Of a DNA stretch of 64,000 bases, positions 23,419 to 50,913 are shown piece by piece. The translations under genes and the position numbers were made by a program. How positions within the stretch are numbered: position 1 is the first letter of the stretch; the number at the start of each line of letters is the position of its first letter. The notes below the pieces were generated by a model, which did no database searches, had not been told where the DNA came from, and was given only the letters and a program-made list of their open reading frames with translations. This DNA comes from Escherichia coli (GTDB lineage Bacteria > Pseudomonadota > Gammaproteobacteria > Enterobacterales > Enterobacteriaceae): assembly GCA_025336685.1 (NCBI GenBank), contig GCA_025336685.1_4717.1. One strand, 5' to 3'.

Positions 23419-23485
23419 TTATGCCGTGTTTGTTACAAAATCGTATGGCGTATATGCGTTGTACTTATTAAATAGGACAGAATAC

Positions 23486-25006: not shown

Positions 25007-25345
25007 TTAGAACCAGAGTTCTTTCATGAGGTAGGCTTCCATATCGTAGATAAGCCACTCGTCAGGAATTTCTAAAGGATCGTCTTCGGTTAAGGTCAGC
25101 ATGTGCAGGGCGAACGCACGCTTAATATCGTTCAGCAGTTTCTCGTCGTCGTAACCTTCGGGTAGTTTACGGTCTACCAGTTGGGTTTGTTTATAGACAG
25201 CACAGAACGCTTCAGGGCTATGTTTGTCCATCGGAAATTGTTCGGCGGCCTGGACCATCGTCAACGTCCAGCTTACAACATTGTAACGCTCACCGTTAAT
25301 TTCACTGAACTGATCATCGATTAAACAGATTTGTTGTACGTTCAT
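25007..25345 (-). CDS. hypothetical protein
   Basis: 112-aa ORF. Confidence 0.45.
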   Translation of the reverse strand: MNVQQICLIDDQFSEINGERYNVVSWTLTMVQAAEQFPMDKHSPEAFCAVYKQTQLVDRKLPEGYDDEKLLNDIKRAFALHMLTLTEDDPLEIPDEWLIYDMEAYLMKELWF

Positions 25346-26235
25346 TCATTTTCTCCATTCTTATCTTGGTCGCAATCGCACTCTTCGACGTCTTTCTTAC
25401 TTAAACGTAAGACACCAAGTGCGGCATGCTTGAGTTCTTGCAACGCGCTTTTCAGCTGACCTTCTTCATCGAAATCAAAATACTTCTCGTTGTAGCTTAA
25501 TGCTGGAATCATATTTACGAGAGGCTCGATGGCAGGCATCAACATTTCAATAACAACCTTAGGATCAACAAAGCGTTCAAACCCTTCAGGAAGTTTGCTT
25601 ACCACAACTTTATCGTTCTTGATGAAGAATTTGTTCTTGAACAAATCGTCAAGAATAGCGTTCTCTTCATCCGTACGTTTTGCGTGAGGACGATCGATCA
25701 TCTGCACAAACACATCACTCAACGCTTCAGGCAAGGTCGGATTTTCACGAAGAGAAGTTCCAGCCGGAATTTCAATATCGATCTTTGCCCACTCAACAAC
25801 CTGGTGATCTCGTGTGTAGATAACATCGACTTCCCATGCCAGGCCGTCCGGACTTTCTACGGTGTAGCGTGTTTTCGCCTGACCTTCCGGAGCCATACGC
25901 TCGATAGCATCAAACATCTCGACTGGAATTTCGACTTCGCTTTCCGTTGCATCGCCTGGACCACGATACACCTTCGTGGTCATGATGTATTTCGGTTCTT
26001 CGTTATCGATCTGTATAGCTCGTGCTCGTACTTGACCTTTCACACCACCAACGGCCGTGTTATCAAACAACCATTGATGTTGCACCATATGTTCGATTTT
26101 TGATGCTACTTGACGAAGACGCTCAACACCATCCTCAGCCAGTTTACCAAAGAAGACCAGCTCACGTTCCTGCTGTGTCTCACCACTTAACATCATTAAA
26201 TTGGCGATTTGTTTCACGCCTCTTACTTTTGACAT
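25342..26235 (-). CDS. hypothetical protein
   Basis: 297-aa ORF. Confidence 0.5.
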   Translation of the reverse strand: MSKVRGVKQIANLMMLSGETQQERELVFFGKLAEDGVERLRQVASKIEHMVQHQWLFDNTAVGGVKGQVRARAIQIDNEEPKYIMTTKVYRGPGDATESEVEIPVEMFDAIERMAPEGQAKTRYTVESPDGLAWEVDVIYTRDHQVVEWAKIDIEIPAGTSLRENPTLPEALSDVFVQMIDRPHAKRTDEENAILDDLFKNKFFIKNDKVVVSKLPEGFERFVDPKVVIEMLMPAIEPLVNMIPALSYNEKYFDFDEEGQLKSALQELKHAALGVLRLSKKDVEECDCDQDKNGENE

Positions 26236-31958: not shown

Positions 31959-34127
31959 CTAGCTTTCGCAGTCATCTGCGTCGATGATTTGTCCACCGGC
32001 AACGTTCAGTTGATGATACAGAATCCTCAACGCACGGTTACCACCAATGGGATACTTCTCGAAGTTGGTCGCAATAGGAATCGCTGACGGCTTATCGGTC
32101 GCATAGATGCTTTCAGTGATGCTATCCACCTGTTTTGGATTGTTTGCATAGTCCATAAAGACGCTCGCAAACCACCCACCAGCAAAGGCGGTAACTTCGC
32201 GATGTTCAGATTCACCACAGTAACGAGTTGGTTGCTCTTTACCAGGAGAACTGTACTTATCGCTATTACTGAGTTTCGACGGTAATCCGTGCGCTTGCAG
32301 TTTAGGAATACCCACCGCTGACCAATCGTTCGCCGTCTTCTCCAACATCATGATGTACGTGTCACCGATCGCAATATCGTTCTTGGTTGTCCGCCACTGC
32401 CCAGAACGTCCGCGGTACCGTACAGGACCTTTCTTCAACGGGAACTCACGAATCAGATTCTCCATACGTTCTGAACCCGCTGCGATACTGTCTGTCGGGA
32501 TATAAACTTCCGTACCGTGGCGTTGTACGTACCGTAAATGATCCCATTTATCCTCATCCGTGATACAGTATTTTTCAACAACCTGTTCCACGAACTCAGG
32601 ACTGACGATATAGTAGTAGCGCATCAGTGTGTTCCAAGCGGTCTCCAGATCGCCTGCATCCATCACTGGTTTCAGCTCACGCATGATCTGGTCACCAACA
32701 CCGTTGATGTATGGCGCATTAACACGACTTAAACTCATCCTTTTGATTACCGTGCTATCGTCAAACATAAAGTCCGCAACGTTACCCCATTGGTCAACCG
32801 GCATTTCATCGTCTTCCATGATGTCGGTTACGACGAATTTATCACCCGCCATACCCGTGAATTTAAACCCGATACCTGGAACAACGTCATACGTGTACGT
32901 GATGGTCACACGCCAATCATCGAGATTCTCTTTACGGTAATCGCGGGTTGGTAATACATGACGTAGCTGTCCGTTAGGATTGCGGATATCAATACCGTGT
33001 TCAGCATCAGCCAGGTTCAACCACCACATCACCGTTTGATGATGACGTATCGGCGTACCAACGCGTTCACGTTCGTACTTACGAACAGCATCCTGAATTC
33101 GGGTGTAAAGCAAACCGATTGCGTTTTCATATTTCAGGAATTGACGATACGGAGGACGCATCTTCTCTTCCATCATAATCGCACGCTCGCGGGCTTGACG
33201 TCCAGAACGACGATGTCGATCGCTGACAACATCGATATCCGTTACACGCGCATTCGGTTCAGCGTAAGTGAGATCATCGTAAACATAATCCACGCGCTGA
33301 AGGTTACACGTCATCATGTCAACAACGCTGAGGATAGGATCTATTTCGCGTGTTGCTGCAAGCAACCCATCCTTACGAATGCGCTCACCGTTCTCGGGTA
33401 TTGCTTGGTATACTTCGTCATCACCGTAGAGATTGATTGGGTATCGCGATTTACCTGATGTAATTGTTCGCTTCTCAATACCAGTACTGGTGAAATGCTT
33501 CAATACACCGCGACGGGCAACGCCACCATCTTCAATACACTGGTAGAAGCTACCGAAACACACCTTGCAATCGCGACCGTAACCCCACTCACGTGTTTCT
33601 TGATTGATCGCTGGGCTTTCCATCAAACGAGAATATCGTGGTACGATCTGGCCTCGACGAAGGGAATGGAACAAGTTGGTTGGTCGAAAACGGAAACCGT
33701 ACTGCTGATGCATGATGTGATGCTCGGGCACTTCAAGCAAGCGTAGCTCGTGACGGTTACCATCCTCTTGGTTTTCATACAGCACGTAATGCATCGTGTT
33801 TGTTTTGATGCTGTTTGCTGTATGCCCTGGTTGAAACCGCGGAATGATATCTATGATGCGAGATTCAACTGGAAACTCTACTGACCAAGTGTTTTGTCCG
33901 TACTGGTATTCAATCCCCGTCGTTAGTCGGGACGGCTTCGCATCTTTGATAACCAACGCTTGGCTAAGATGTCCACCAAACATCGCAGCGCGCTGTGCTG
34001 AGTTATAATGCAATAGCCCGTTAAGTCCAGTCCCTACGCCAGTATACTCCTGTTTAATGGGAATGATTTTACCTTCAGCGATTGCCTGCTTCACAGATTC
34101 ATAAAGAGGTTTTTCTTTATAATGCAT
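31959..34127 (-). CDS. multisubunit RNA polymerase beta-like subunit, C-terminal module
   Basis: GDKFVVTDIMEDDEMPVDQWGNVADFMFDDSTVIKRMSLSR parallels beta GDKxAGRHGNKGV..EDMP..G.P.D..LNPLGVPSRMN; GESEHREVTAFAGGW parallels GEMEVWALEAYGA; ATG 34127 (MHYKEKPLY) with AGGAAG RBS instead of track start 34292. Confidence 0.65.
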   Translation of the reverse strand: MHYKEKPLYESVKQAIAEGKIIPIKQEYTGVGTGLNGLLHYNSAQRAAMFGGHLSQALVIKDAKPSRLTTGIEYQYGQNTWSVEFPVESRIIDIIPRFQPGHTANSIKTNTMHYVLYENQEDGNRHELRLLEVPEHHIMHQQYGFRFRPTNLFHSLRRGQIVPRYSRLMESPAINQETREWGYGRDCKVCFGSFYQCIEDGGVARRGVLKHFTSTGIEKRTITSGKSRYPINLYGDDEVYQAIPENGERIRKDGLLAATREIDPILSVVDMMTCNLQRVDYVYDDLTYAEPNARVTDIDVVSDRHRRSGRQARERAIMMEEKMRPPYRQFLKYENAIGLLYTRIQDAVRKYERERVGTPIRHHQTVMWWLNLADAEHGIDIRNPNGQLRHVLPTRDYRKENLDDWRVTITYTYDVVPGIGFKFTGMAGDKFVVTDIMEDDEMPVDQWGNVADFMFDDSTVIKRMSLSRVNAPYINGVGDQIMRELKPVMDAGDLETAWNTLMRYYYIVSPEFVEQVVEKYCITDEDKWDHLRYVQRHGTEVYIPTDSIAAGSERMENLIREFPLKKGPVRYRGRSGQWRTTKNDIAIGDTYIMMLEKTANDWSAVGIPKLQAHGLPSKLSNSDKYSSPGKEQPTRYCGESEHREVTAFAGGWFASVFMDYANNPKQVDSITESIYATDKPSAIPIATNFEKYPIGGNRALRILYHQLNVAGGQIIDADDCES

Positions 34128-34158
34128 AGGACTTCCTATTATCGAATTGAGGTACGTC

Positions 34159-34512
34159 ATGTCTAACACGCCCCTGAACGACTTTCTTAAGACAAACCCC
34201 GATGACCTCATCCACGATCTTGATTTCAGGAACGTTGTTGAGATGCATCTGGAATATTTCAAAAATGCCGGACTGGTCTCTACGATAGACATACCACCCG
34301 AACGCGCCTACGAATTCGATGGTAACTTTTATGGATTGTGTCGTGTTCTGCTCGGCGAGGGCAGTGAATCAATGCACTGGATCACCATGAGACTCAATGG
34401 TTATCGCGACCCTACGGAATACACCGCCGATGTTCTAACCATGAAGATTGTCGATACAAGCGCAATCAACACATTAAAACAACAGTACCGCACAATCCAC
34501 TACAGCGCTTAA
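34159..34512 (+). CDS. hypothetical protein
   Basis: Track start is TTG at 34147; ATG 34159 (MSNTPLNDF) has GAGG RBS; divergent from the beta-like gene. Confidence 0.45.
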   Translation: MSNTPLNDFLKTNPDDLIHDLDFRNVVEMHLEYFKNAGLVSTIDIPPERAYEFDGNFYGLCRVLLGEGSESMHWITMRLNGYRDPTEYTADVLTMKIVDTSAINTLKQQYRTIHYSA

Positions 34513-34517
34513 GATAA

Positions 34518-34546
34518 CCCTCCCACAGCGTAAAGCGTAGGGAGGG
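34518..34546 (+). terminator. hairpin CCCTCCC ... GGGAGGG followed by CATTTATGCCG
   Basis: 7-bp stem with 15-nt loop, 6 nt after the stop. Confidence 0.5.
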
Positions 34547-34577
34547 CATTTATGCCGTCGTTCGTTGGCTTAGCACA

Positions 34578-35858
34578 TCAGAAACGATTTACAGTACGTC
34601 CTGTCCATGCACTCAGGATGTTGTTACGTTCCATCTCAGCCCGACGACGTAAGCCGTTTGGTGACTGCGGTGCTTGCGGCATCCCCCACCCAGCAGGCTG
34701 CATACCCATACCAGGCCAAGCGGAATTATTGAACATCGTACCGTTACGTTCCGCAACACGATTCATTAATGTATCAAACGTGCTATTACCTGCCGGTTGA
34801 TTACCGCCGCTTTCCCATTGATTAGGTTGAACAGGTGTAGTTTTACCCAACAGGTTATCAATCACGTTACTCGTTGCAGCAGGACGCGGTTGCATGCCTT
34901 CATGTGCAGCTGCTGATGGATTTGGCTTAACCGTCGGCTGCGGACGACTGTTCAGCGTTACACCCATGTTGTATTTCGCTGGTGGAATCTGACCACGATG
35001 TTGGGTAATCGGCTCAAAATCCTCGACCCAGGTAACATCGCAATAACCGTTCTCTTTACCGTCGTACTTATCACCAAACAGTTTGATAAGATTGTTCAGC
35101 GGTTCCATCAGCTTCGCGAAGCTGTGGATAAGACAATCGAAATACGGAGCATGAGGATCGCTTGACCCAGCATTATACGTTTCACTTACCTCACCGGAGT
35201 GAGGGATAACGTACTCAACCAGGTTTCTCAGCATGTTAAGATCTTTCTTGGAAATCTCAACACCACACCAGTACGTTTTCTTATCTTTCGTGCTGATGTG
35301 TTCCTCTTCCATGAACGGGAAAGTAACTACCGCAACGCGGGTCATCTTCTTACCCATGTAGGTTGCGCCAGTACGACGAAGATAAATTTTAGACAACGTA
35401 TACGGTGTGTCACGTTTCAACCAAACGGTGACCAGTTTACCTAACGTCGTTAGCGTTTTATCGCTGGCATCCGCAAGGATATTGAAGAACTCTTTTTGCT
35501 TCGGTCCGAAACGTTTTGCTTCTTTAGGATTGATTGCGGTTTCAACCATCCAAATCAGCATGGAACACAGTGTGGCGTTAAAACGAACAACCATTGCACG
35601 ACGCAGGAACTGAAGTACTTCCGATTCACCATTCATCACGTCTTCACTTAGCGGATGGAACAGTACACGTTCGGCGAGTTGATTTCCGGTACGAACTTCG
35701 GGAACCGGCATCAGCAACGGCATGCTTTCCACGGTAGCGGCAACTGCAACAACTTTACCATCCCCATCTGTAAAACGATATTCTAATTCGTGGGCGTCAT
35801 TTTCAAAATAGTTAACGCTTTGCAGCGCTTTGCGATAAGCTTCAATAAGCTTCGACAT
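34578..35858 (-). CDS. hypothetical protein with Q/P/G/M/N-rich low-complexity C-terminal region
   Basis: 426-aa ORF, RBS AAGGAAA; C-terminal ~120 aa low complexity. Confidence 0.5.
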   Translation of the reverse strand: MSKLIEAYRKALQSVNYFENDAHELEYRFTDGDGKVVAVAATVESMPLLMPVPEVRTGNQLAERVLFHPLSEDVMNGESEVLQFLRRAMVVRFNATLCSMLIWMVETAINPKEAKRFGPKQKEFFNILADASDKTLTTLGKLVTVWLKRDTPYTLSKIYLRRTGATYMGKKMTRVAVVTFPFMEEEHISTKDKKTYWCGVEISKKDLNMLRNLVEYVIPHSGEVSETYNAGSSDPHAPYFDCLIHSFAKLMEPLNNLIKLFGDKYDGKENGYCDVTWVEDFEPITQHRGQIPPAKYNMGVTLNSRPQPTVKPNPSAAAHEGMQPRPAATSNVIDNLLGKTTPVQPNQWESGGNQPAGNSTFDTLMNRVAERNGTMFNNSAWPGMGMQPAGWGMPQAPQSPNGLRRRAEMERNNILSAWTGRTVNRF

Positions 35859-35887
35859 ATTGCGTTTCCTTTTCTTTTACGTCAACG

Positions 35888-35906
35888 GTCCCCTACAACA
35901 GGGGAC
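35888..35906 (-). terminator. hairpin GTCCCCT-ACAAC-AGGGGAC
   Basis: 7-bp perfect stem just downstream of the 35914 stop; no U-tract. Confidence 0.35.
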
Positions 35907-35913
35907 CTATGGA

Positions 35914-37500
35914 TTAGAAGTTGCCTTTGGTAGTTACCGCATCCACCAGGTTAAACAAATCAACACTCAGCTTGTAAACCTCCTGCTGACTACGGTTGAG
36001 CAGCGGGCTGTACGCGGATGGGTTGATGTTCGGCATGGTGTACGGAATCGGTGAAGAGCCGTCAACGCTGATCTTGAACTGGCTGTCCAGGAACAGGTTA
36101 ATCGCACCACTCACCATAACCGCGTTCGGGTTGTTACCCAACATGGAGGGCAGGATATTGGTAATCATGTCGGAACGCATCTGTTCAGCAGCGCGGTTAC
36201 AATCATACCCTTTAATGAACGGTACAGCGTCAGTAACCGCAACCGCCCATTGCCCAGGCATGATGCCTAGTTCTGGATGGCCGTGGTTATCAGCAATGAA
36301 ACGGAACGACTCCAACATGCGATACGTCATCGCAGCAGGCATCATCGCAGCAAGTGATGAACAATACAGCGTTGGATAATCGATAACGTCCCAGCTCTGG
36401 CTATCGGTCGGCATCCAACCAAACTCGGTGGTTGCCGATGTACCGCGACGAGCTTCCACGTACGGGAACAGTCTTAAGACATCACGGACATGCTCGCCGA
36501 ACATCCGTTTCATATCAGCCCAACTCAGGCTACCGCTGAAGGCGAATCCCTCATCACGCATAATCGCACCGAATACCGGATGCGCAACCAACGGTTCTTC
36601 ACGAACAGCTTGAGCTGCTTCTACGTAAATATCCTCATTCTCTGCGCTACCTGGATGAGACCCGCTTTCGTACGTCTGACGAATAGCCCCGACGTTATCG
36701 AAGGCTTTTCTTAGATAGATGGTTGGGATGTTCGTATCAGCACTCGCTGGTTTGATTTTCTCCGTTGCGAAACACATTGCTGCTTCCACACCACGAAAAA
36801 CCGGTTCCGGTTGCGATTGATAGGAAGAGCGATGAACCACATCAGCGTAGGCTGGATCGAACTGCTGCATCACGTTCTGCATGGCTGGGTCCATGAACTG
36901 GTTATCAAAACCACCATTGCCTACCCAACGTGCAGTCGACGCATAAGTCAGCGTATCCTGAACACGAGTACTGAACTGAACATCACGATTAACAGGGTCG
37001 TATGCGCCAGTCAAAAGGTTCGTTGCGTCCATCGGGGTCGCGCGAACGATTTGCTTACCGAACATATCCGTTGTGGTTGTTTCGGTTACCTGGATTACAT
37101 TCGTGAAGAAGAACACCAGTTCGTTCGGCAGATCGATGGCACGTGTTGTAAACGCATCGAGGCTTACCGAATGGTCGGTGTATCCAGAAATGTAATGGAC
37201 GCGCTTGGTTCCTGGTGCAAGGGCCAAGGATTCTTCCACAGCCATCATGAAATGGAAACGACGTGTGCCCCAACCATTCGCAATCTCCGAAACCCCCTCA
37301 GGTTCTGCAGACTGCTGTAACAAACCGGTTGCAAGCTTATTGATTGCTGATGGGGTTGTTGCCGTACCGAACTTCGTCGTGTTAATAAAGTCTTCGATGC
37401 TACGCATGCTATCTGCATGGAATCGTAGTGGACGACGTTGTACGTTGTTGTACGGTGCGGTTTCAACCATCAGTATTTCACGAACATTCATCGGGATCAT
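35914..37500 (-). CDS. hypothetical 528-aa protein
   Basis: Long ORF, no recognised motif. Confidence 0.5.
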   Translation of the reverse strand: MIPMNVREILMVETAPYNNVQRRPLRFHADSMRSIEDFINTTKFGTATTPSAINKLATGLLQQSAEPEGVSEIANGWGTRRFHFMMAVEESLALAPGTKRVHYISGYTDHSVSLDAFTTRAIDLPNELVFFFTNVIQVTETTTTDMFGKQIVRATPMDATNLLTGAYDPVNRDVQFSTRVQDTLTYASTARWVGNGGFDNQFMDPAMQNVMQQFDPAYADVVHRSSYQSQPEPVFRGVEAAMCFATEKIKPASADTNIPTIYLRKAFDNVGAIRQTYESGSHPGSAENEDIYVEAAQAVREEPLVAHPVFGAIMRDEGFAFSGSLSWADMKRMFGEHVRDVLRLFPYVEARRGTSATTEFGWMPTDSQSWDVIDYPTLYCSSLAAMMPAAMTYRMLESFRFIADNHGHPELGIMPGQWAVAVTDAVPFIKGYDCNRAAEQMRSDMITNILPSMLGNNPNAVMVSGAINLFLDSQFKISVDGSSPIPYTMPNINPSAYSPLLNRSQQEVYKLSVDLFNLVDAVTTKGNF

Positions 37501-37501
37501 T

Positions 37502-39088
37502 TTATTTTTTTCCTCTTAAATTTACTACATGTTCATTTAATCGAACAACTAATTGCACAAGCTGCTGACGGATATCTGCTGGGCAAAGCATCAATCCTTT
37601 ACGATCAGCTGGGACTTTCTCAAGGATTTCCGGACCTGCTGCGGAAACATCCCAATCCCATTCACAAAACGCATCAGCCACCATGTTAATACCGACAACC
37701 GGTAAAGTTGTACGTTCATCTTCATACATGGCATGCGGATACAATTTATTGACGGTAATGACCTCCTGTGGTTTTAACTGATGGATAATCTGGTAAACGT
37801 CGTCGCGTTTAACCTGGATACCTACGGTCAGCGCAGCCAGTTGAGGAAAACCCCAATGGTCTAATAAGCACGCTGCGATTGCTAACGCTTTTGCCTGATG
37901 TACGGCTTCAATCGGTGATAGACTTCTCGCTGGAAGATGACTATCAAGCAACCATTGTGCCAATGCTCGGCATCCACGGTTGATTGGTTTTAACTCAATG
38001 CTGTCATCATGTTTAGCGTAGGTGTATCCGTCGTAACGTTTTGCGATACGCGCATACATGTCTTCAACTTTACCGTAAGGTGCTGTTTCGTCGACGTCAT
38101 GCAACACCCGTTCCATCTGGGTAAGATACGCGATATCAAGGATGAGTACGCGTGGTGAACGTTTATCTTTCACCATCAACGCATCAATCACGCCTTGACT
38201 GTCTTCATCTTGCGCATTCCCTCGCGGCGTTTTCTCGCGAATCGGTCCGCTGAAACGTCGTTCCGTACAAAGGTTATTCACATAGCTAAAGATCAACGTT
38301 ACCAGGTGCGTACAACTCACCAACACTCCATCTTTAACGACAGGCTGTACGGCTTGGTCCAAATCGCGTACTGCGAGACGGCGAACGATGGCTTGTGAAC
38401 GCAACCAACCAGGTACTTTCTCTGTCGACATGTAATCCACCGTCATCGACAGCGTGATCTTTTTATCGCCTGTCTGTGCACGGATATAATCTTCCAGTCG
38501 GTCGTAAGCAGCGATATCATGAATGCGTGTTTTATACATCAACGACATAGCCACTTCTTCTTTACGTACCGTCCCGTACGTTTTCCCTGCGTCAATCAGA
38601 AACTCCGCCCAAATCGGCACCATCAGCCGGACGTAGATCGCTAACGCCGTTAACTCAACGTAATCGTTTCGTAAATAGGTTTTCTCAGGTATGTCATCCT
38701 CACCTAATGTTGTTTTCATGTCTGGCGGTAATTTTACCCAACCTGGGGTATTACACAACGCCAGAATCTCTTCATAGACGATCGGTTTGTAAATTTCACC
38801 GACGGCGCGGCTCAACTCCTCCATTTGTTGCTGTGGAGCAATGTAGTTATCCATCGCTTCACGTGCTTTAACGAACCCTTCGAAGATGTCGTCGATTCGA
38901 CGTGGGTTCTTTTGTTCTATCCAAGCGAGATACTTATTAATCTCTCGCATCTGATTGCTAGCCATATCCCCATCAATCTTGATGTAGCCTTGGCCTGAAA
39001 ATTCCACGGCACGTCCGTCACGATGTTTGATGAGATAGTGATCCAGCTTTTCTTTGCCTTGCGTCGTAATGACGGGCACAATGTGCAT
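37502..39088 (-). CDS. hypothetical 528-aa protein
   Basis: Long ORF preceded by a 240-nt structured leader with promoter-like motif. Confidence 0.5.
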   Translation of the reverse strand: MHIVPVITTQGKEKLDHYLIKHRDGRAVEFSGQGYIKIDGDMASNQMREINKYLAWIEQKNPRRIDDIFEGFVKAREAMDNYIAPQQQMEELSRAVGEIYKPIVYEEILALCNTPGWVKLPPDMKTTLGEDDIPEKTYLRNDYVELTALAIYVRLMVPIWAEFLIDAGKTYGTVRKEEVAMSLMYKTRIHDIAAYDRLEDYIRAQTGDKKITLSMTVDYMSTEKVPGWLRSQAIVRRLAVRDLDQAVQPVVKDGVLVSCTHLVTLIFSYVNNLCTERRFSGPIREKTPRGNAQDEDSQGVIDALMVKDKRSPRVLILDIAYLTQMERVLHDVDETAPYGKVEDMYARIAKRYDGYTYAKHDDSIELKPINRGCRALAQWLLDSHLPARSLSPIEAVHQAKALAIAACLLDHWGFPQLAALTVGIQVKRDDVYQIIHQLKPQEVITVNKLYPHAMYEDERTTLPVVGINMVADAFCEWDWDVSAAGPEILEKVPADRKGLMLCPADIRQQLVQLVVRLNEHVVNLRGKK

Positions 39089-39180
39089 AACAACCTCTTT
39101 TCGCGGTTCCCTGTTGAAACGTCTTCTGTGACGTCTACCACAAAGGTAACATTTATGTCGCCTCTATGACTTTGTTCATA

Positions 39181-39202
39181 GAGGTAATATAAGCGTGAAT
39201 AA
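39181..39202 (-). promoter_or_regulatory. conserved promoter-like motif (TATATTAC core), copy 2
   Basis: Plus strand GAGGTAATATAAGCGTGAATAA, ~95 nt upstream of start 39088; overlaps hairpin CCTCTATGA/TCATAGAGG. Confidence 0.45.
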
Positions 39203-39330
39203 TTTTGGATTCCAGCTGAGTTATCGCTCAGCATGCAAGGCATCCCGCCGAAGCGAGACACCTTGCACTAACGGAAAGTATTCGCGTTACCTTCTGAGTC
39301 TTCGATTCAGAATGCGAAGCTAAAGCATTA

Positions 39331-40119
39331 TTAGAACGCTAAGCCATCAAAGGCTACAGACGGATCATCGTCGTCATTTGCGCTTGGTGCATCCCAACGG
39401 GTATCAGGGGCAGCTGGGGCCGAACGTGATGCGTTAGAGTTACCGTTGTACTGGCCGTTACCAGCATTACGGTTACCGCCGCCGTTATTATTGTTGCGAT
39501 TATAGCTGTTGTTGCCATTACTTACGCTACGGCTCTCACCATCGAAATTGGTTGCGAGGATGCTTGGCAACACAGCACGATGGATGCGTACGAATTCCAA
39601 TGCACAAAGCGGAGAAACAACCCCGATCTGCAACGGTTGCCCAGACTCATCAACCAGAGAGTGGAAACGTGGTGGTTTGAATACGAACTGGATGTTTGGT
39701 TTCTGGTATGCTGTTACAGCGATGTATACCGAACCATCATCATTCTTACCAACCCATGTTGTACTTTCGGTAATCTGTTTCTTCTTACCTGGGTTATTGC
39801 GATCATCAATAACCTTTTCGTTCTTCATCGCAAAGCGTTGACCTGGTTTACCCTTAGCAACCTGCTCAAGGATCGCAAGCAGGTTGTAGAACGCGTATGA
39901 ACTCATGCGTGCCCAAATGCTTTCAGCGCGACCCTGCTGGTCTTTACGACCTGTATAAACCGTGATACGCGGTTGATTCTTAGCAACGCTAATTTTCAGT
40001 GAGGGGACCGAATTGCCACCCTCAACTTTTTCGTCCGCCCACAGTTTCCAGTTGTTGTCGTCGTAAGCCGTAGGAATAATGTTTCCTTGTGGTTTACTAC
40101 CCGAATTCCAATTGCTCAT
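39331..40119 (-). CDS. possible ssDNA-binding protein
   Basis: Globular N-terminal ~190 aa, N/G-rich linker (NGNNSYNRNNNNGGGNRNAGNGQYNGNSN), acidic C-terminal tip DDDDPSVAFDGLAF resembling an SSB tail. Confidence 0.4.
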   Translation of the reverse strand: MSNWNSGSKPQGNIIPTAYDDNNWKLWADEKVEGGNSVPSLKISVAKNQPRITVYTGRKDQQGRAESIWARMSSYAFYNLLAILEQVAKGKPGQRFAMKNEKVIDDRNNPGKKKQITESTTWVGKNDDGSVYIAVTAYQKPNIQFVFKPPRFHSLVDESGQPLQIGVVSPLCALEFVRIHRAVLPSILATNFDGESRSVSNGNNSYNRNNNNGGGNRNAGNGQYNGNSNASRSAPAAPDTRWDAPSANDDDDPSVAFDGLAF

Positions 40120-40192
40120 TTTCAGCCTCGTTACGTAGTGTGCATCAATTTCTGGTTCAGATGATTGTCAATATTAGTTAAAAATTACAGCC

Positions 40193-40990
40193 TCAGCGGA
40201 ACATGTCCAACAGAAAACGTTTTGCGAAGGGGTCGCGTAACTGGTTGACACCAAAGCGTGTACGGTCTTCCGTTGTTAACGGATTCCACTGACTCTGTTT
40301 CGCAAGATCTAACAGCATCCTTTTTATTTTCACCGGTCCGCTGTTAAACTGTACGGCTTGGTCACCGAACGTTCCCAATGTCATCTTTGTAAATGGGAGG
40401 TTCGCAACCTCTGGACGATCCCCACCAGTAAGTTTGGTTGACCACTGATGTTTTCGTTTCAAAGTTCCGGTATGACTCTCTACCAAAATAAGTTCACCAA
40501 AACCGGTTCTTGCCAACAAGTCAGAAACATAGTGCGTGGTGATATACGATGTTTTGGTTATCGTGGGTAATTTACAATCCATCGATTCGATATTAGGGAG
40601 TCGATCTACAGACGCCATCAACCCACGATAAAGTGTAGCGAGTCCTTTTTGTTTTTCGGTATGTGGCTCCTTGTGTATAGCGTGCGGATAAACACGCTTT
40701 ATTGATGCATAGGTTGGCGCATATATCCGCAAACGAATATGGGGAACGAGTTCATTCACCAACTGCCTTAGCTGCAGCAACTCGTTTTGAAAATCCCCCG
40801 TTATCATCGATAATGGTAATTTATGTTGCTCGACGTCTTCAAAGCTTTCAACAAAATTGCGCGCTAAAGTACGCAGGTTGAACAACCAATCCATCGGTGT
40901 TTCTGGCTGTTGCTGTACTGCTGATAATGTTGCTGACGTCCCCACCGATAAAGGATAATCACCTAGCGTGCGGGCGTACATATCGCTCAT
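40193..40990 (-). CDS. hypothetical protein
   Basis: Track start 41026 is TTG; ATG 40990 (MSDMYARTLGDY) preceded by AAGGAG. Confidence 0.45.
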   Translation of the reverse strand: MSDMYARTLGDYPLSVGTSATLSAVQQQPETPMDWLFNLRTLARNFVESFEDVEQHKLPLSMITGDFQNELLQLRQLVNELVPHIRLRIYAPTYASIKRVYPHAIHKEPHTEKQKGLATLYRGLMASVDRLPNIESMDCKLPTITKTSYITTHYVSDLLARTGFGELILVESHTGTLKRKHQWSTKLTGGDRPEVANLPFTKMTLGTFGDQAVQFNSGPVKIKRMLLDLAKQSQWNPLTTEDRTRFGVNQLRDPFAKRFLLDMFR

Positions 40991-41009
40991 ACCCCACAAC
41001 TCCTTCTTA

Positions 41010-42152
41010 TCATGGCAACGTATCAAGCCAAGCAGAAACCTTTAAGGCATCAACGTTCGGGTATTTATTACGGATGCGTTCGACCAACAAACGCTTAACG
41101 TTGTCCTTTGTCAAGTCCCCACCCTTCTCGATAACGTTATTGACAAAACTGTTCTTTAATAGCGACTGGTTGTTCTTGGCATCCGTTTTAATTGACCAGA
41201 CAAAACCTGGATACAAAGAAGGGATAGAACGAAACGTTTTCGCTGCGTCGTCTTCCTTATCGCAGCGTATTCGAATATGATCGCCCTTCTTCAATGGAGC
41301 CAATTCCCGTTCCAACACACGGACAATTTCATCTCCAACAAGACCATGCAGTTTTATCGTCTTGTAGACATCTGCTTTCTTGTTCTCAACAAATTCCCAT
41401 TGGTCGTTAAACGATTCTGTTAACGTATAACGGAGGTACCCCTTTGGACCTTCTTCGCCATGCGACAAGCGACCGAACGAACCGCCAACCATGATACGTC
41501 CTTTCTGGGATTGTAAGTGAATATGTCCGCTCACAATCCATCCCTGGGTCTTCTCCACCATTGCGTTATACGCATCACTGCTATGAACACATGTCGCTTT
41601 TAACGCTTCTGGTGGAAGCTGATATTCGAACGCACCGTGCATCAGAATGAAGTCCGGCGATCCCTTCTCATCAATAAGTCGGTTCACGGCTGACAACGTC
41701 ACATCCGGGTCGTGGCTGTAGTTATCTGGAAGATAAAGTACTTTTAAACCAAAGTCTTCATCAACCATGCAGAGGTCATCGTAATAACGAACTTTCGCTC
41801 CTATCTCCATGACCTCGTTCTGCTCAACGAACCACTGGCTTTGCTTCTGGTCGTGTAAATTGGTACCCTCAAGAAAGATCAATGTAATATCGTGTTTTCT
41901 CGCATACCGTAACAACCAGGTACCCCAAGCACGAACAGCAACCACGTCACTCGTTACAAACGTCGTAATACGATCGAAGACATCACCACTGAACGTAATC
42001 ACGTCAAGCAGCGCAGGATCTTCTTTGGTGATGTAATAACGTAGCTGGTTAATCAGGTTTACTGTTGGTGTTTGACGATGGATAAAGTGAATATCCGACA
42101 AATTGATTCCACGTAATACCCCAGGCGTTTTATTTCGACTGAAGTCTCGCAT
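41010..42152 (-). CDS. calcineurin-like metallophosphoesterase, Mre11/SbcD-like nuclease candidate
   Basis: Motifs LSDIHF, GDVFD, GTNLHD, MHG, SGHIH. Confidence 0.6.
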   Translation of the reverse strand: MRDFSRNKTPGVLRGINLSDIHFIHRQTPTVNLINQLRYYITKEDPALLDVITFSGDVFDRITTFVTSDVVAVRAWGTWLLRYARKHDITLIFLEGTNLHDQKQSQWFVEQNEVMEIGAKVRYYDDLCMVDEDFGLKVLYLPDNYSHDPDVTLSAVNRLIDEKGSPDFILMHGAFEYQLPPEALKATCVHSSDAYNAMVEKTQGWIVSGHIHLQSQKGRIMVGGSFGRLSHGEEGPKGYLRYTLTESFNDQWEFVENKKADVYKTIKLHGLVGDEIVRVLERELAPLKKGDHIRIRCDKEDDAAKTFRSIPSLYPGFVWSIKTDAKNNQSLLKNSFVNNVIEKGGDLTKDNVKRLLVERIRNKYPNVDALKVSAWLDTLP

Positions 42153-46257: not shown

Positions 46258-47669
46258 CTTCAGTTTAATTTGGTCGAACGTATTCCAATTTCAATCCATG
46301 CCAATCACCGCCTTTACTAATAGCGGTACTTATCGTAGTCGGATGCACTTTATGTTCTTCAGCAAGGGCGAATCTATCAGGATAGACTTTATGTGTACCA
46401 TCCTCAAACACCACCTTTACTGGGAACCTTTGTAATCCACCAGTTTTTGGTCTAGGCTCTTTAGGAATATATTTACATTCGTTCACATCGCCAGGATAAT
46501 TCCTTGTCCACCATGCTTTCCAACCGTTTCTGGAAAACATCTTATCTCCATGACATAAGCTATGACTTAATGTCGCATAGCTCACTCCCACCATTGTTGC
46601 CGCCATTACGGTACTTTCCATGTGATACTTGTCTCCATCGGGCGATATTAAAACCAACCCGCCGTAAATAACATACGACTTACCGGCATCTTCGGATGTG
46701 AAACCGACAAATTCCATTCCGTGGGTAGCCGCATCGTAATATTTCATCAACGGCCATTGTCGTGTAGTACGGAACCATTTTGAAATCTGGGTGTGTGGGA
46801 TACCGTAACACTTAGCCGCATCGCGCATACTGTAATGTTCGGTTATCTCGCCAGTTCTCAAATCCTTTATCCATACTGTTTTAGCTTTCCAGTTCAAGCC
46901 CGTACGATAGGCATGGTACGTATTTTGGGATTGACTCGTCCATTCAAGATTATCCAAGCGGTTGTTATCTTTAACTCCGTCAAGATGGTTACCTACTAAC
47001 ATTGATCCCTCAGGCAGCATAGGTTTTTCACGAAAGGTGGATAAAACAACATGATGAGCTGCTATATCTCTACCTTCATGTCTGACCCTTACATATCCTA
47101 ATACGTTAGTTTTTCCTACTTCCTCTCCAGTATAGGCATCTATAATGACACCCTCCACAGAAGCGGCAAGTCCGGGATAATCTTTACAATGGTAAAATCC
47201 TGGGAATTTTGTCTCTCTAAGTTTCATCTTCTCTCCGCTATCGGCCAACAGAGAGAAAACGTTCCTCGGAGGCCGACGTTTTCAAATTAAACTACGTTAT
47301 CGACTATATCTTCATCCTCATTGCGAGGAGTCTCCCGTTTGGGTCTGTGTTTAACAGAGCCTACTCTACTCGACATCGCGTCTTTCGATAGTCTGTGAGC
47401 ACACATCTTAACGAACATTCGTGGACTCCTAAACAGGTGAACATTCTTGTTAAGATGCTTCGCTGCGGGTTATTCCCGTCCTACCTCTTTTACCATACCC
47501 AGTTCATTACGCTGGCCCTCATCTATGTCGCCACGATGAGTTGGTGTGTAGTCCGATTACAGAAACTTCCCGTCAATTAGAGAGTTTTAACTATGTTCCT
47601 GTTACCAGAAACCCGACTCCGATGATATCAATAAATCAACGTAAGTTATTGATTTAATTGAAGAAACTG
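46258..47669 (-). other. group I intron (1412 nt) in the RNAP beta-prime-like gene
   Basis: 5' splice after U (GCCGACUU|CAG); candidate IGS GAGUCGG pairs with exon CCGACUU including a U.G wobble; P AAUUGACGGGAAG, Q AAUAACCCGCAGC, R GCUCACAGACUAUCGAAAG, S GAAGAUAUAGUCGA all in the first ~400 nt; 3' end ...CUGAAG with terminal G. Confidence 0.8.
46265..47227 (-). CDS. HNH homing endonuclease encoded in the 3' part of the intron
   Basis: HHVVLSTFREKPMLPEGSMLVGNHLDGVKDNNRLDNLEW (HNH core); track start 47248 is TTG, ATG 47227 has GGAGAG RBS. Confidence 0.8.
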   Translation of the reverse strand: MKLRETKFPGFYHCKDYPGLAASVEGVIIDAYTGEEVGKTNVLGYVRVRHEGRDIAAHHVVLSTFREKPMLPEGSMLVGNHLDGVKDNNRLDNLEWTSQSQNTYHAYRTGLNWKAKTVWIKDLRTGEITEHYSMRDAAKCYGIPHTQISKWFRTTRQWPLMKYYDAATHGMEFVGFTSEDAGKSYVIYGGLVLISPDGDKYHMESTVMAATMVGVSYATLSHSLCHGDKMFSRNGWKAWWTRNYPGDVNECKYIPKEPRPKTGGLQRFPVKVVFEDGTHKVYPDRFALAEEHKVHPTTISTAISKGGDWHGLKLEYVRPN

Positions 47670-48925
47670 AAGTCGGCATTGTATCCCTTAAGGATCATCA
47701 CGCTTAACCCGATGGTGTTATCCTGCGGATCGCGTTTAACCTTGGTGATTTCAAGACATTGGTTACTGCTTCGGTCAAGTGATGGGTTTCGAACAAAACC
47801 ACACACAATCCCATCGAACGGTGTATCGGCAATAAGCTCATCGTGTAGCTCGCTCATCATCGGGTGGTAATTACGGACATGTTCCGCAACGAACGCACGT
47901 GCTGCTCTTGGTGAATAACCACGATGGAATAACTTGGATTGGATGTGTTCTTTATTGGTTAATGTAAATGGCGCGTATGGGAAATGCAGATGATAATAAC
48001 GATGGTTCGCTGTTATCGAACTGATTACGGTACGCGTGGTGAATGGGTGTAATGTACCTAATATGTTTTTACGCGTGATACCTTTCTTCTTACCGATGAA
48101 CTCATCGAAAATCGCCGAGTGGTACTGCAGCAGCTTCAGTTGTACTTTCGCCATCCAGTTTTCTTTCTTTCTGGCGCTCAAAGGTGTTGTTGGGTGATAG
48201 ATACTATTCAATGTGCCGATAGCATCGATCGCACCTTCCATTTTGCTATCTGCATAACGGCCGGTCGGTGTATTTTCGATAACGAACATCATGGCCGCAG
48301 GAAAGCTGATATACTGGCTGAAGAACTTATCACGATGGATACGGATGAATTCTCGTAGCGTGTCAACTTTCTCTGTGTTCTTCGGTCCACGTAACGTAGG
48401 TCCTTTATACAAGATCTCCATGATGCGATCGAAGTTCTGTATAAAGCTATTTACGCCACGTCGTATCCCGAATACATCGAATTGCTGCTCCAGATAGTTC
48501 TTGAGTTCGATGGGTCGTTTTACATTTGGACGGTAACTGGCATCAATGAGCCACGTCATCGTTTCGAAGCTTTTGATATTCAACTCGCTTGCCAGCACGA
48601 GATGGACCAACGGGTTAATGAACGCATCGATTCCTTCAGGGACACGCGCCCAGACCGTCGAACGAATCTCCTGTTCTGCTGGGTAGGTCACAACCGTTTT
48701 ACAGTTTGGACACACCGTGCCGAGCAGCTCACCACGATTGTAAAAACCGCATCCACATTGCGGTGTGATATCCAACGTATCGCTGGAGTAAACACGGGTG
48801 ATAAAACTGTTTAATTTCTTCTTCTCTTCGACGACTTTTGTATCGTAATCGTTCAACAAAATCGGCGTAAAGGGAAGTTCTGCGAGCTGTCTATCGAAAC
48901 TCACGATATCGAGCATGATGGCCAT
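47670..48925 (-). CDS. RNA polymerase beta-prime-like N-terminal subunit, exon 1
   Basis: Zinc-ribbon CGCGFYNRGELLGTVCPNCK; C-terminal ...IGLSVMILKGYNADF parallels bacterial ...LHPLVCAAYNADF; the ORF reads through into the intron as SFFN-stop. Confidence 0.8.
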
Positions 48926-49017: not shown

Positions 49018-50913
49018 TTAGAACAGGTTGAATGCCCCACCCATGTTGTTACCGCCAACATTCGGACGATCGCTACGTGCATAGATGTTGCCGGAGATGT
49101 TACCCAGACCACGAGCACGTGCTGCTGTGTTACCACGAACAGCGGTACCTGCCAGATGCTGGATGTTCTCAGGACGGATGGTGAAGCCAGCTTCGGCAGC
49201 CGCTTCAATCAATGCCGCAAGCGCATTCGGTTCGAAATCGTAACGCATTGCCCAACCGGTTTGTTCCCAGCTACCAGACAGAACGCGATCGATGATTTCG
49301 TGACGAGCAACAACACGCTGAGACATCGACATATCGGTACGGTCGAAGCTGTCTTCCCAAGCTTCTACGGTATCCGGGTTAGTGATGTTCATCATGTACA
49401 GATCGTCCATATCACGAATATCGTGACGGTGGCCATCCTGGTGGTTGTAGTGACCCAGCGGGATACGGTTACCGGTAGCGTACACTAACGGCTGGCCGTA
49501 TTGATATTTCTTGCTGAAGCAACCCAGGGTGGTATCATCGAATGCACGATAGAGTGCTTTATAGCCTTCGGAGATTTCTTGAACTTTACCGTCAACGTTG
49601 CCCGTAAAGATCTTCTCAGCTGCAGGGATCATACGCAGCAACCAGCTATATTCACCTTCTTCCGGTACATCGATAGAAATCAGCAGAGACGGATACAGTA
49701 CCTGTTGCAGGAACTTGTAAATCTGCTCGTTGGTTTGAGTAGACAGATCCAGCGGTGCGGTAACTTCCGGATCCAGTACCATTGCCAGAGCACCCGGGTT
49801 ATGAGGACCGATGCCACGAGCAGCGTTGCTGATTAAAGACTGTGCCCACGCCATACCGCTGTTCAGCGTAGCGATGGTACCAATCAGACCTAACACGAAA
49901 GTGTTCGGAGTGAACGCATCCAGCTCCAGCGGGTAAGCGCTGGTCATCACGTAACGCGGCTGGTATTGTACAGTCGGCGGTACCGGATAACCGTTAACCA
50001 GAACAGGACCTTGGTTGAAGGTCGGGTTCTGCGGGCTGTAGGTCAGGTCAATGTAACCAGTGGTTGCGACCAGGCGCTGTTGACTATCGTAATCGCTCAT
50101 CGCTTGACGGATACGGTTAGAGATAGTTACAGTGATGTCAGAACGTACTGGGTTACCGACGATATCGCTGTCCTGCATACCGCTGGTGTTGTACTGAACG
50201 CTGCTGATCGGCTGATCGCTTGCCATCATGCCCAGGTTGAACTGCGGCAGGCCCAGTTTATCGCCGAGACGGATTTCGATCGCGGTTTGGATTGCGTTAT
50301 CTGCAGCAGACAACAGGGTGGTTGCCAGATGTGCAGATTCAGCGGTGATTTCATTGGTCACCACAGCCAGACCGGCGATACGAACAGTACCATTAGCCTT
50401 ACCACCAATAGCCGCATACATTGCCGCCATGACTTCGTTGATGAACGTGCCGTTCAGGTTATCAACCCAGGTACGTGGTACCAGAATGTTACCATGCGGA
50501 CCTTGTTCTTCACGACGCGGCAGCGGAGCCAAACCGGCAACCAGCGGAAGCACATAACCGAAGAAGTGGTTATGGTCACCAACTTTTGCACCGCTCATAA
50601 CAACCAGGGTCGGATACGGTACACTGTACTGGTTAGGATCGACGGTCACCATGATGAAGTCGTCTTTGAATCCTTTATCTTCCAGTTCTTTTTCCATCAG
50701 ACGGCGGAGATTCAGTACCTGCTCGGAGCCAGTATTACGGCTAATACGACGGCTCAGTGTACGGTTGATCGTACGCATCGTATGAGTTACTTTAGGCTGG
50801 CCAGCAAAATCTGCAGCGGTTTCCAGCGCCTCATCAGCACGTTGTGCGGTGCGGGTTTCAGCTGCACGAATTTCTACATTATCGTTACCGTTATTACGTA
50901 CGTCTAAGCCCAT
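49018..50913 (-). CDS. 631-aa protein, candidate nuclear-shell protein (chimallin-like); function inferred only from size, promoter and position
   Basis: Long ORF with AGAGGAA RBS, promoter-like motif upstream, immediately upstream of the beta-prime-like gene; I recall a similar arrangement in phiKZ. Confidence 0.45.
   Translation of the reverse strand: MGLDVRNNGNDNVEIRAAETRTAQRADEALETAADFAGQPKVTHTMRTINRTLSRRISRNTGSEQVLNLRRLMEKELEDKGFKDDFIMVTVDPNQYSVPYPTLVVMSGAKVGDHNHFFGYVLPLVAGLAPLPRREEQGPHGNILVPRTWVDNLNGTFINEVMAAMYAAIGGKANGTVRIAGLAVVTNEITAESAHLATTLLSAADNAIQTAIEIRLGDKLGLPQFNLGMMASDQPISSVQYNTSGMQDSDIVGNPVRSDITVTISNRIRQAMSDYDSQQRLVATTGYIDLTYSPQNPTFNQGPVLVNGYPVPPTVQYQPRYVMTSAYPLELDAFTPNTFVLGLIGTIATLNSGMAWAQSLISNAARGIGPHNPGALAMVLDPEVTAPLDLSTQTNEQIYKFLQQVLYPSLLISIDVPEEGEYSWLLRMIPAAEKIFTGNVDGKVQEISEGYKALYRAFDDTTLGCFSKKYQYGQPLVYATGNRIPLGHYNHQDGHRHDIRDMDDLYMMNITNPDTVEAWEDSFDRTDMSMSQRVVARHEIIDRVLSGSWEQTGWAMRYDFEPNALAALIEAAAEAGFTIRPENIQHLAGTAVRGNTAARARGLGNISGNIYARSDRPNVGGNNMGGAFNLF

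Follow-up and report, generated by a model that had tools for sequence, protein, structure and literature searches.

Phage-Nucleus Genes in a Goslar-Like Locus

The DNA analyzed is a stretch of 64,000 nucleotides, hereafter the window, from contig GCA_025336685.1_4717.1 of a GenBank assembly assigned to Escherichia coli (GCA_025336685.1). It contains two minus-strand genes: 39331..40119, which produces a protein of 262 amino acids (aa), and 34578..35858, for a protein of 426 aa, the stop codon being included in both cases. Both open reading frames (ORFs) are present, on that strand, exactly as reported in a preliminary description made from the sequence alone, which had drawn attention to long low-complexity regions in the two products and had likened the first one to a bacterial single-stranded-DNA-binding protein (SSB). 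The ~7-kb stretch around both genes has 94.7% nucleotide identity with Escherichia phage vB_EcoM_Goslar, a nucleus-forming jumbo phage of the Chimalliviridae; the 262-aa protein is the ortholog of ChmC, also known as Imp6 (Goslar gp176, phiKZ gp67, PhiPA3 gp61), and the 426-aa protein is the ortholog of Goslar gp173 (phiKZ gp70, PhiPA3 gp64).

The 39331..40119 product is 98.5% identical at the amino acid level to Goslar gp176, from which it differs by four substitutions (V38I, S154A, R232S, and P235S). It also matches PHIKZ067 (E = 3e-11) and PhiPA3 061 (E = 5e-8) in tblastn searches, falls in phrog_3284 (E = 1e-35), and is homologous to the protein at the corresponding position of 201phi2-1 (gp123). 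Goslar gp176, PhiPA3 gp61, and phiKZ gp67 are the proteins named ChmC, an RNA-binding protein that is essential and associated with the phage nucleus (PMC11077065), and the window protein shares with the ChmC/Imp6 members the predicted Whirly-like fold, the N/G-rich linker with its acidic end, and the genomic position. The 34578..35858 product is 97.9% identical to Goslar gp173, has tblastn matches on PHIKZ070 and PhiPA3 064, and falls in phrog_3520 (E = 1e-63); with phiKZ gp70 and PhiPA3 gp64 it has about 27% identity over the N-domain, the same place after PicA, and the same disordered tail of at least 100 aa.

The gene order of the region is SbcD-like nuclease, gp177, ChmC, a non-virion RNA polymerase (nvRNAP) subunit, PicA/Imp1, gp173, and nvRNAP beta. 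The same order is found in phiKZ, in PhiPA3, and in all the 26 related loci with full flanks, and one incomplete locus still retains the SbcD-gp177-ChmC portion. The ChmC gene has the gp66-like gene on one side and the gene of the gp68-like nvRNAP subunit on the other, with PicA and ChmA nearby; in 26/26 full-flank loci the gp173-family gene directly follows PicA/Imp1 and precedes nvRNAP beta. Taken together, these data indicate, with a probability of about 85%, that the region comes from a Goslar-like chimallivirus, of which it represents the conserved block of phage-nucleus and transcription genes, and that both proteins are known components of the phage nucleus. Both are already present in the literature, ChmC being well characterized and the gp173 orthologs merely localized, and no new entity is added here.

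The ChmC Ortholog: Published Behavior and Predicted Fold

For ChmC, a Whirly fold was predicted by AlphaFold, and the PhiPA3 protein was found to be a homotetramer by size-exclusion chromatography with multi-angle light scattering, with dissociation constants (Kd) of 58 nM for single-stranded RNA (ssRNA) and of 184 nM for single-stranded DNA (ssDNA); ChmC crosslinks to phage mRNAs in vivo and forms condensates that are stimulated by RNA (PMC11077065). Deletion of its C-terminal disordered region abolishes both the condensates and the localization at the nuclear shell, and knockdown of Goslar gp176 lowered plaquing to ~4% and arrested the development of the nucleus, phenotypes that the authors read as an mRNA-export defect (PMC11077065). 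ChmC corresponds to Imp6, and phiKZ gp67 was identified as a direct binder of Imp1/PicA, with a 2:1 stoichiometry (bioRxiv 10.1101/2024.03.27.586873). The phiKZ orf67 is without disruptive transposon insertions and its knockdown by antisense oligonucleotides is deleterious; moreover, proximity labeling with UvsX, which is RecA-like, identified ChmC, and this protein is one of the most abundant among the early ones. Goslar ChmC co-purifies with the RNase H-clamp protein Rhc and with DNA-polymerase subunits (PMC13648698). By orthology, the window ChmC would share the tetrameric state, the nanomolar binding of ssRNA, the condensates, and the shell localization.

Relatives were collected with a word-indexed homolog search, which retrieved eight sequences for ChmC and five for gp173 and limited the depth of the AlphaFold2 alignments accordingly; the ChmC model was built on a nine-sequence alignment. 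The predicted local distance difference test (pLDDT) score is 75-96 over most of residues 20-190, and the model consists of two beta-sheet-plus-helix modules: a beta-beta-beta-alpha module (strands 40-46, 49-59, and 65-71, helix 74-89), followed by a beta-beta-beta-beta-alpha one (strands 95-105, 113-125, 131-136, and 143-146, helix 165-191). A Foldseek search against the PDB gave as best match the Trypanosoma brucei MRP1/MRP2 proteins (2gia/2gje; E = 9e-4, probability 1.0) and also retrieved human PURA (8chv). The model thus points to a Whirly/PUR-like nucleic-acid-binding domain at residues ~16-190 (39550..40074, minus strand), and not to an oligonucleotide/oligosaccharide-binding (OB) fold; AlphaFold2 and Foldseek results reproduce the published Whirly assignment (PMC11077065).

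The Whirly/PUR proteins, which include MRP1/MRP2, PURA, and the plant organellar Whirly proteins, are likewise made of tandem beta-sheet-plus-helix modules and bind single-stranded RNA or DNA, and MRP1/MRP2 are tetrameric, as is PhiPA3 ChmC (PMC11077065). However, the TM-scores are modest (0.29-0.44) and sequence similarity is not detectable; furthermore, the first module of ChmC is three-stranded, whereas it is four-stranded in these proteins, which also lack the long SSB-like tail. The likeness is structural only, as the Pfam Whirly and PurA models gave no match for ChmC, with zero Pfam families at E <= 0.01. Mutation of six basic residues abolishes nucleic-acid binding in PhiPA3 ChmC (PMC11077065): the RNA-binding R35, R44, and R63 (“Rmut”) align to K42, R51, and R71 of the window protein, and K30, K48, and K59 align to S37, Y55, and S67.

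The ChmC Tail and Its SSB-Type Tip

Residues 191-262 of the window ChmC have a pLDDT below 50, and the protein ends with ...NDDDDPSVAFDGLAF. This tail comprises a disordered N/G-rich linker with Y-N-R type motifs (SYNRNNNNGGGNRNAGNGQYNGN), spanning residues 191-248 (39376..39549), and an acidic C-terminal tip, DDDDPSVAFDGLAF, at residues 249-262 (39334..39375), both on the minus strand. Residues 201-230 contain 14 N and 7 G (N+G = 21/30), with a Shannon entropy of 2.2 bits vs ~3.7 elsewhere; the excess of asparagine is significant compared to the N frequency of 4.7% in the neighboring genes (binomial P = 2e-11). The architecture reported in the preliminary description, that is, a globular N-terminus followed by an N/G-rich linker and an acidic tip, was therefore recovered, with a core that is confidently modeled at residues ~20-190.

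The resemblance of this tail to that of the SSBs becomes stronger at the family level. The disordered tail and the acidic tip are present in all the 28 distinct ChmC homologs gathered from phage records, viral contigs, and the protein database; the tail is N/G-rich in all but two, with GGGGxYxRNN as the linker consensus, and the last residue is F, W, Y, or L in 26 of them and M in the other two. A tip of the form [DE]2-3-[IVLM]-P-x?-[FWYM]-COOH occurs in 16/28 homologs and in 0/999 other complete ORFs from the same loci. Metagenomic members end with SFDDDIPF, TFDDDIPF, or GDDDIPF; among the phages, the tips are FDDEIPNF in PhiPA3 (...GFDDEIPNF), FDEDMPSF in phiKZ, DFADDLPF in Erwinia phage RAY, SEDLPF in Burkholderia phage FLC9, and AFDTDIPF in Erwinia phage pEa_SNUABM_54. 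E. coli SSB ends with ...SAPAAPSNEPPMDFDDDIPF (checked against PDB 1eqq/4mz9), its tip being MDFDDDIPF. The window tip diverges from that of the family, [DE]2-3-[IVLM]-P-x-[FWYM]-COOH, and has an 8-residue extension compared to PhiPA3 and phiKZ ChmC (DDDDP-SVAFDGLAF).

In Smith-Waterman alignments with the SSB tail, the scores of ChmC tails are higher than those of composition-preserving shuffles, z reaching 8.7; for the window tail z is 5.8 and 0/300 shuffles reach the observed score. Among the 967 ORFs of Goslar and the window, ChmC is the sole one whose last 14 residues are acidic, free of basic residues, and end with a hydrophobic residue. ChmC and the bacterial SSB (E. coli, PDB 1eqq/4mz9) have in common a nucleic-acid-binding core, a G/N/Q/P-rich disordered linker, and an acidic tip with a terminal aromatic residue; the PhiPA3 protein further resembles SSB in being a tetramer, in binding ssDNA, and in its linker-dependent phase separation, and tips such as SFDDDIPF are nearly identical to DFDDDIPF. 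Unlike SSB, ChmC has a Whirly/PUR-like core with no sequence homology to it, prefers RNA, and is concentrated at the shell, and the tip of the window protein is degenerate. In the ChmC paper the tip segment is only described as an S/D/E-rich “electronegative cluster” and SSB is never mentioned (PMC11077065); no link between ChmC and SSB was found in the literature searched, which included the ChmC/Imp6 papers and recent reviews. The SSB-type tip on the ChmC tail is, therefore, the one fresh lead of this analysis.

Some further observations concern the ChmC gene and its homologs. The ChmC homolog of Erwinia phage pEa_SNUABM_54 (MW879341.1, L032:140-1552) is 470 aa long: its Whirly-like module is duplicated in tandem, and one Q/G/N/W-rich linker, with the tip AFDTDIPF, comes after the two copies, so that the protein represents a natural covalent “dimer” of the ChmC core. 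Two ChmC homologs carry the JGI label “uncharacterized membrane protein YgcG”, which was rejected as an artifact of the glycine-rich tail, a membrane feature not being predicted. The 242-nt spacer 39089..39330 contains, ~65 nt past the stop codon of ChmC, a perfect hairpin of 16 bp (39233..39268, minus strand) that is capped by a UUCG tetraloop and has smaller hairpins on either side. The 116-nt stretch that includes it has a folding energy of -46.7 kcal/mol (z = -4.5; 0/200 shuffles fold as well), while no U-tract follows the hairpin and no Rfam match was obtained; it may be a transcript-end or stabilizer element for a highly expressed chmC mRNA.

The gp173 Ortholog

The 34578..35858 product contains a globular N-terminal domain, specific of the chimalliviruses, at residues 1-290 (34989..35858, minus strand; pLDDT mostly 75-94). 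A Foldseek search with this domain gave no fold match in the PDB (best E = 2), and the matches in BFVD are only uncharacterized jumbo-phage proteins. PDB sequence and profile searches with the family gave nothing except a lone match with TFIID subunit 10 (E = 0.56), which was discarded as noise, as it falls in the low-complexity tail. A HMMER search of the family, run exhaustively, retrieved 1,429 cluster representatives, matching over the N-terminal ~300 residues, with total lengths that are mostly 400-590 aa among the matches listed. The domain includes a near-invariant loop, FHPLSE-x4-GES, at residues 67-79 (35622..35660, minus strand): in 67 sequences P69 and E72 are invariant, and F67, H68, G77, E78, and S79 are conserved in at least 90%. 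The folded domain has a single low-pLDDT segment; this loop falls within it and could have a binding or catalytic role.

Proximity labeling with ChmA/UvsX identified PhiPA3 gp64, which is localized at the nuclear shell, is expressed early, as is ChmA, and co-purifies with ChmB (PMC10643120). phiKZ gp70 appears in a list of nuclear proteins and is not an Imp1 binder (bioRxiv 10.1101/2024.03.27.586873), and Goslar gp173 serves as a “known nuclear-localized” carrier (PMC13648698). In phiKZ transposon-directed insertion sequencing, PHIKZ070 has one insertion site (3 reads) after trimming and its neighbors have none. Orthology suggests that the window protein is a nuclear or shell-associated core protein.

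The C-terminal part of the protein, residues 291-426 (34581..34988, minus strand), is a disordered P/Q/G/N/A/M-rich tail, with pLDDT below 50, sparse aromatic residues, and short conserved islands. P, Q, G, N, M, and A account for 54% of residues 300-426 vs 28% in the N-domain (Fisher P = 5e-7), in agreement with the Q/P/G/M/N-rich end that had been noticed in the preliminary description. The low-complexity character attributed there to both proteins holds for residues 201-230 of ChmC and not, strictly speaking, for the gp173 tail, which is compositionally biased and disordered, with an entropy of 3.3-3.8 bits. The islands F361, L364-M365, W391-G392, R404-R405-R406, and A417-W418-T419-G420 are invariant in the three closest relatives (97%, 44%, and 43% identical).

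A tail of at least 60 aa is present in 153 of the 154 family representatives, with a median length of 166 aa. The average composition of these 153 tails is 15% P, 12% Q, 11% A, and 11% G, with ~7% aromatic, ~5% acidic, and ~5% basic residues; 81% of them end with a hydrophobic residue, and a subset has a P-R-W-A motif 20-40 residues from the end. The G-[FYW]-G motif occurs 157 times vs 22.7 expected from shuffles (z = 31), in 89/153 tails, and [FYW]G occurs 412 times vs 208 expected. The composition varies among lineages, being M/Q-rich in phiKZ (…QPGMMQQPVMMNNNF…) and P/N/A/G-rich in the window, while many metagenomic tails are Q/P/G-rich with GWG or GYG repeats. For both ChmC and gp173, the tails are family features and not accidents.

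Neighboring Genes and Other Features of the Window

Unless otherwise stated, the features described below are on the minus strand. The two genes that separate gp173 from ChmC both code for proteins of 528 aa. The first, 35914..37500, is the PicA/Imp1 ortholog (phmmer E = 8e-18 to PHIKZ069) and corresponds to Goslar gp174, named PicA (PMC11087766), a selective protein-import factor of the phage nucleus. The second, 37502..39088, codes for an nvRNAP subunit equivalent to phiKZ gp68 and Goslar gp175 (phmmer E = 2e-30 to PHIKZ068); phiKZ gp68 has been called an nvRNAP subunit or a “sigma factor” (bioRxiv 10.1101/2024.03.27.586873), and Goslar gp175 is in the nvRNAP subunit list (PMC13648698). On the other side of ChmC, between it and SbcD, 40193..41026 is the gp177 ortholog; gp177 was described as T4-RNase-H/FEN-like and dispensable in a 2026 preprint (PMC13648698), but this assignment finds no Pfam or PDB sequence support for the window protein.

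The window also comprises further hallmarks of the core block that is conserved in chimalliviruses: the chimallin ChmA (49018..50913; PF25677), the C-terminal DNA polymerase subunit of a divergent family-B DNA polymerase (52329..54482; PF20286), helicases, several split genes for RNA-polymerase beta and beta-prime, and an intron with an endonuclease. The nvRNAP beta-prime piece 47654..48925 has directly downstream of it this group I intron (47281..47660; RF00028, 50.3 bits, E = 8e-10), which is followed by an HNH endonuclease ORF (46265..47248); Goslar is annotated with the same arrangement. On the plus strand, 23426..24937 combines in one phage ORF a DUF7941 domain and a DUF285/BspA-type leucine-rich repeat; its counterpart, Goslar gp161, is annotated as “BspA family leucine-rich repeat surface protein”, which is unusual amid a replication/transcription block. 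Scans for sigma-70 promoters and intrinsic terminators in 34000..41200 gave counts not above those of shuffles; since these phages rely on RNA polymerases of their own, the result is uninformative.

In the Goslar RefSeq record (NC_048170.1, 166000-215000) the locus tags are not sequential: HOV27_gp186 is followed by gp247, after which the numbers descend, and because of this jump chimallin is gp246 in a recent preprint. The preprint gene numbers gp173 and gp176 match the RefSeq locus tags, so they indicate the same genes analyzed here.

Proposed Roles and Alternative Interpretations

On the reading of the region as a chimallivirus phage-nucleus block, the Whirly-fold domain of ChmC would bind single-stranded nucleic acid, mainly phage mRNA, through its basic surface, while weak, multivalent contacts made by the N/G-rich linker and the acidic tip would drive the formation of RNA-protein condensates. 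The same tail would also keep ChmC at the nuclear shell, the site at which it would bind PicA/Imp1 and support mRNA export. These steps are experimental in the orthologs and would extend to the window protein through its 98.5% identity; the idea, put forward in the preliminary description, that disordered tails of this kind mediate recruitment or condensate formation agrees, for ChmC, with the requirement of the PhiPA3 tail for both condensates and shell localization (PMC11077065); for gp173, this general idea is compatible with the data. As to the gp173 ortholog, its globular domain would localize to the nucleus or to the shell, and its tail might act there as a flexible, multivalent, uncharged “sticker-spacer” tether or as a condensate-forming arm.

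Several points weigh against this reading. The function of both window proteins is wholly transferred from the orthologs, and the window ChmC retains just three of the six basic positions that were mutated in the PhiPA3 protein. The tip of the window/Goslar clade is the most divergent of the family and is extended (DDDDP followed by SVAFDGLAF). As to gp173, the published localizations disagree, with the shell in PhiPA3 and the nucleus in phiKZ and Goslar, and the family has no published function (PMC10643120 for gp64); moreover, the window tail is mild, with one WG motif and 7 aromatic residues in 127 aa (5.5%). As the window tail has one aromatic-glycine motif, the “sticker-spacer” proposal rests mainly on the relatives.

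The preliminary description raised the question of whether the 262-aa protein is an SSB. It appears extremely improbable that this protein is a genuine SSB of the bacterial type, having an OB fold at its N-terminus. This proposal has on its side the tail architecture only, and it was ruled out by the AlphaFold2 topology, predicted to consist of two beta-sheet-plus-helix modules instead of a 5-stranded barrel, by Foldseek, which retrieved Whirly/PUR proteins and no OB-fold SSB among the top 50 matches, and by sequence searches, as no match was obtained with the SSB profiles of Pfam (including PF00436) and NCBIfam or with PDB sequences, and phmmer with E. coli SSB gave E ~1 for ChmC. Since its N-terminal domain is predicted to be non-OB and no SSB profile matches it, the 39331..40119 product is not a member of the SSB family; the SSB label is wrong for the fold but suits both the tail and the protein's general way of acting. 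Indeed, of the two findings that the preliminary description had set against an SSB, the non-OB fold was obtained, whereas the lack of ssDNA binding was not, the PhiPA3 ortholog having a Kd of 184 nM for ssDNA.

A more tentative proposal, which at present seems doubtful, is that ChmC is the long-missing SSB equivalent of the nucleus-forming jumbo phages: a functional ssDNA-binding protein, or at least a mimic of the SSB C-terminus, in which a Whirly tetramer replaced the missing OB-fold SSB and an SSB-type linker with a DFDDDIPF-type tip was acquired or converged on. Its DDDIPF-type tip would serve as a docking site for partners in replication or repair or for host SSB-interacting proteins, with the RNase HI domain of Rhc, nucleases, helicases, and PicA as examples. 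In favor of this proposal are the occurrence of the tip motif in more than half of the homologs (16/28) and in none of the 999 other ORFs, the correspondence of the metagenomic tips, and of those of RAY, FLC9, and pEa_SNUABM_54, with E. coli DFDDDIPF, and the tail alignments above shuffles, including that of the window protein. PhiPA3 ChmC is a tetramer that binds ssDNA, is found in proximity of UvsX, and is an abundant early protein. E. coli RNase HI is a client of the SSB tip. The protein Rhc, which co-purifies with ChmC together with DNA-polymerase subunits, has an RNase HI-like N-terminal domain (PMC13648698), and shell localization is lost upon C-terminal deletion (PMC11077065). In addition, a global survey of viral replication proteins detected no SSB in phiKZ-like phages and raised the possibility of a non-orthologous displacement (PMC4889955).

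No SSB product is annotated in the Goslar record, and phmmer with E. coli SSB against the 967 ORFs of Goslar and the window identified no homolog (best E = 0.3, not significant); however, a single-sequence search is a weak test for OB folds. The best match to the OB region of E. coli SSB was the 297-aa product of 25342..26235 (minus strand; E = 0.34), which adjoins two helicase genes; it has no Pfam family, just a PHROG of unknown function, and is not evidence for a hidden SSB. Against ChmC as an SSB equivalent stand its ~3-fold preference for RNA in vitro and its crosslinks to phage mRNAs in vivo, its concentration at the shell and not throughout the DNA-filled lumen, and the interpretation of the knockdown phenotypes as an mRNA-export defect. 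The window/Goslar tip is also the least SSB-like of the family, and the aromatic-ended acidic tails could equally be self-inhibitory “electronegative clusters”, as proposed by the authors of the ChmC study in terms of autoinhibition and condensation. The SAPAAP hexapeptide common to the window tail and E. coli SSB was considered as a sign of gene capture and rejected: it is absent from Goslar itself, which has SASAAP, so the match is probably due to chance.

For the gp173 family, it was considered whether the tail forms an FG-nucleoporin-like or FUS-like selective phase at the shell, that is, a permeability or export matrix, possibly mixing with the ChmC condensates. FG-nucleoporin/FUS-type domains and gp173-family tails are alike in their uncharged polar spacers, in their aromatic-glycine stickers, and in belonging to proteins of a nuclear boundary, and the orthologs are indeed found at the shell or in the nucleus; the aromatic content of ~7%, the enrichment of G-[FYW]-G and [FYW]G, the hydrophobic ends of 81% of the tails with the PRWA subset, and a gene placed beside those of PicA, ChmC, and nvRNAP in every locus also agree with this idea. 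Nevertheless, it seems unlikely: gp173 has no homology with such proteins and its tail in the window has no regular repeat, a single WG, and 5.5% aromatic residues; the motif counts are raised by the presence of repeats; gp70 shows no binding to Imp1; and a gp173 “deletant” is still nuclear (PMC13648698), which fits a localization signal in the folded domain rather than in the tail. A link of the family with nvRNAP and transcription, which would account for a gene lying between PicA and nvRNAP beta in all loci, for the nuclear localization in phiKZ and Goslar, and for an early expression like that of ChmA, is very unlikely, as the protein is neither among the purified phiKZ nvRNAP subunits (bioRxiv 10.1101/2024.03.27.586873) nor in the Goslar nvRNAP list (PMC13648698), the PhiPA3 ortholog is at the shell (PMC10643120), and the sole PDB profile match, TFIID subunit 10, is noise in the tail. 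The assignment of both proteins to the phage nucleus, with ChmC as a Whirly-type RNA-binding protein, is thus the preferred reading.

Significance for the Chimalliviruses

Two published components of the phage nucleus were correctly rediscovered from raw sequence. The gp173 gene is a core gene nearly devoid of transposon insertions in phiKZ, for which the grammar of the tails yields a concrete suggestion: as a companion to the idea of ChmC as an SSB-like hub, the tail of this neighbor may supply an uncharged aromatic/Q/P/G matrix at the shell. As to ChmC, its family carries an almost exact copy of the C-terminal tip of the bacterial SSB, and phiKZ-like phages have been noted since 2016 as being without a detectable SSB. 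If ChmC were an SSB equivalent, the tip would be a docking peptide at the nuclear shell or at the replisome, with Rhc, PicA/Imp1, and the host SSB-client enzymes as candidate partners, and ChmC would be a single SSB-like hub at which mRNA handling, replication, and import are connected; whether it recruits partners as SSB does bears on the coupling of replication, mRNA export, and protein import at the shell.

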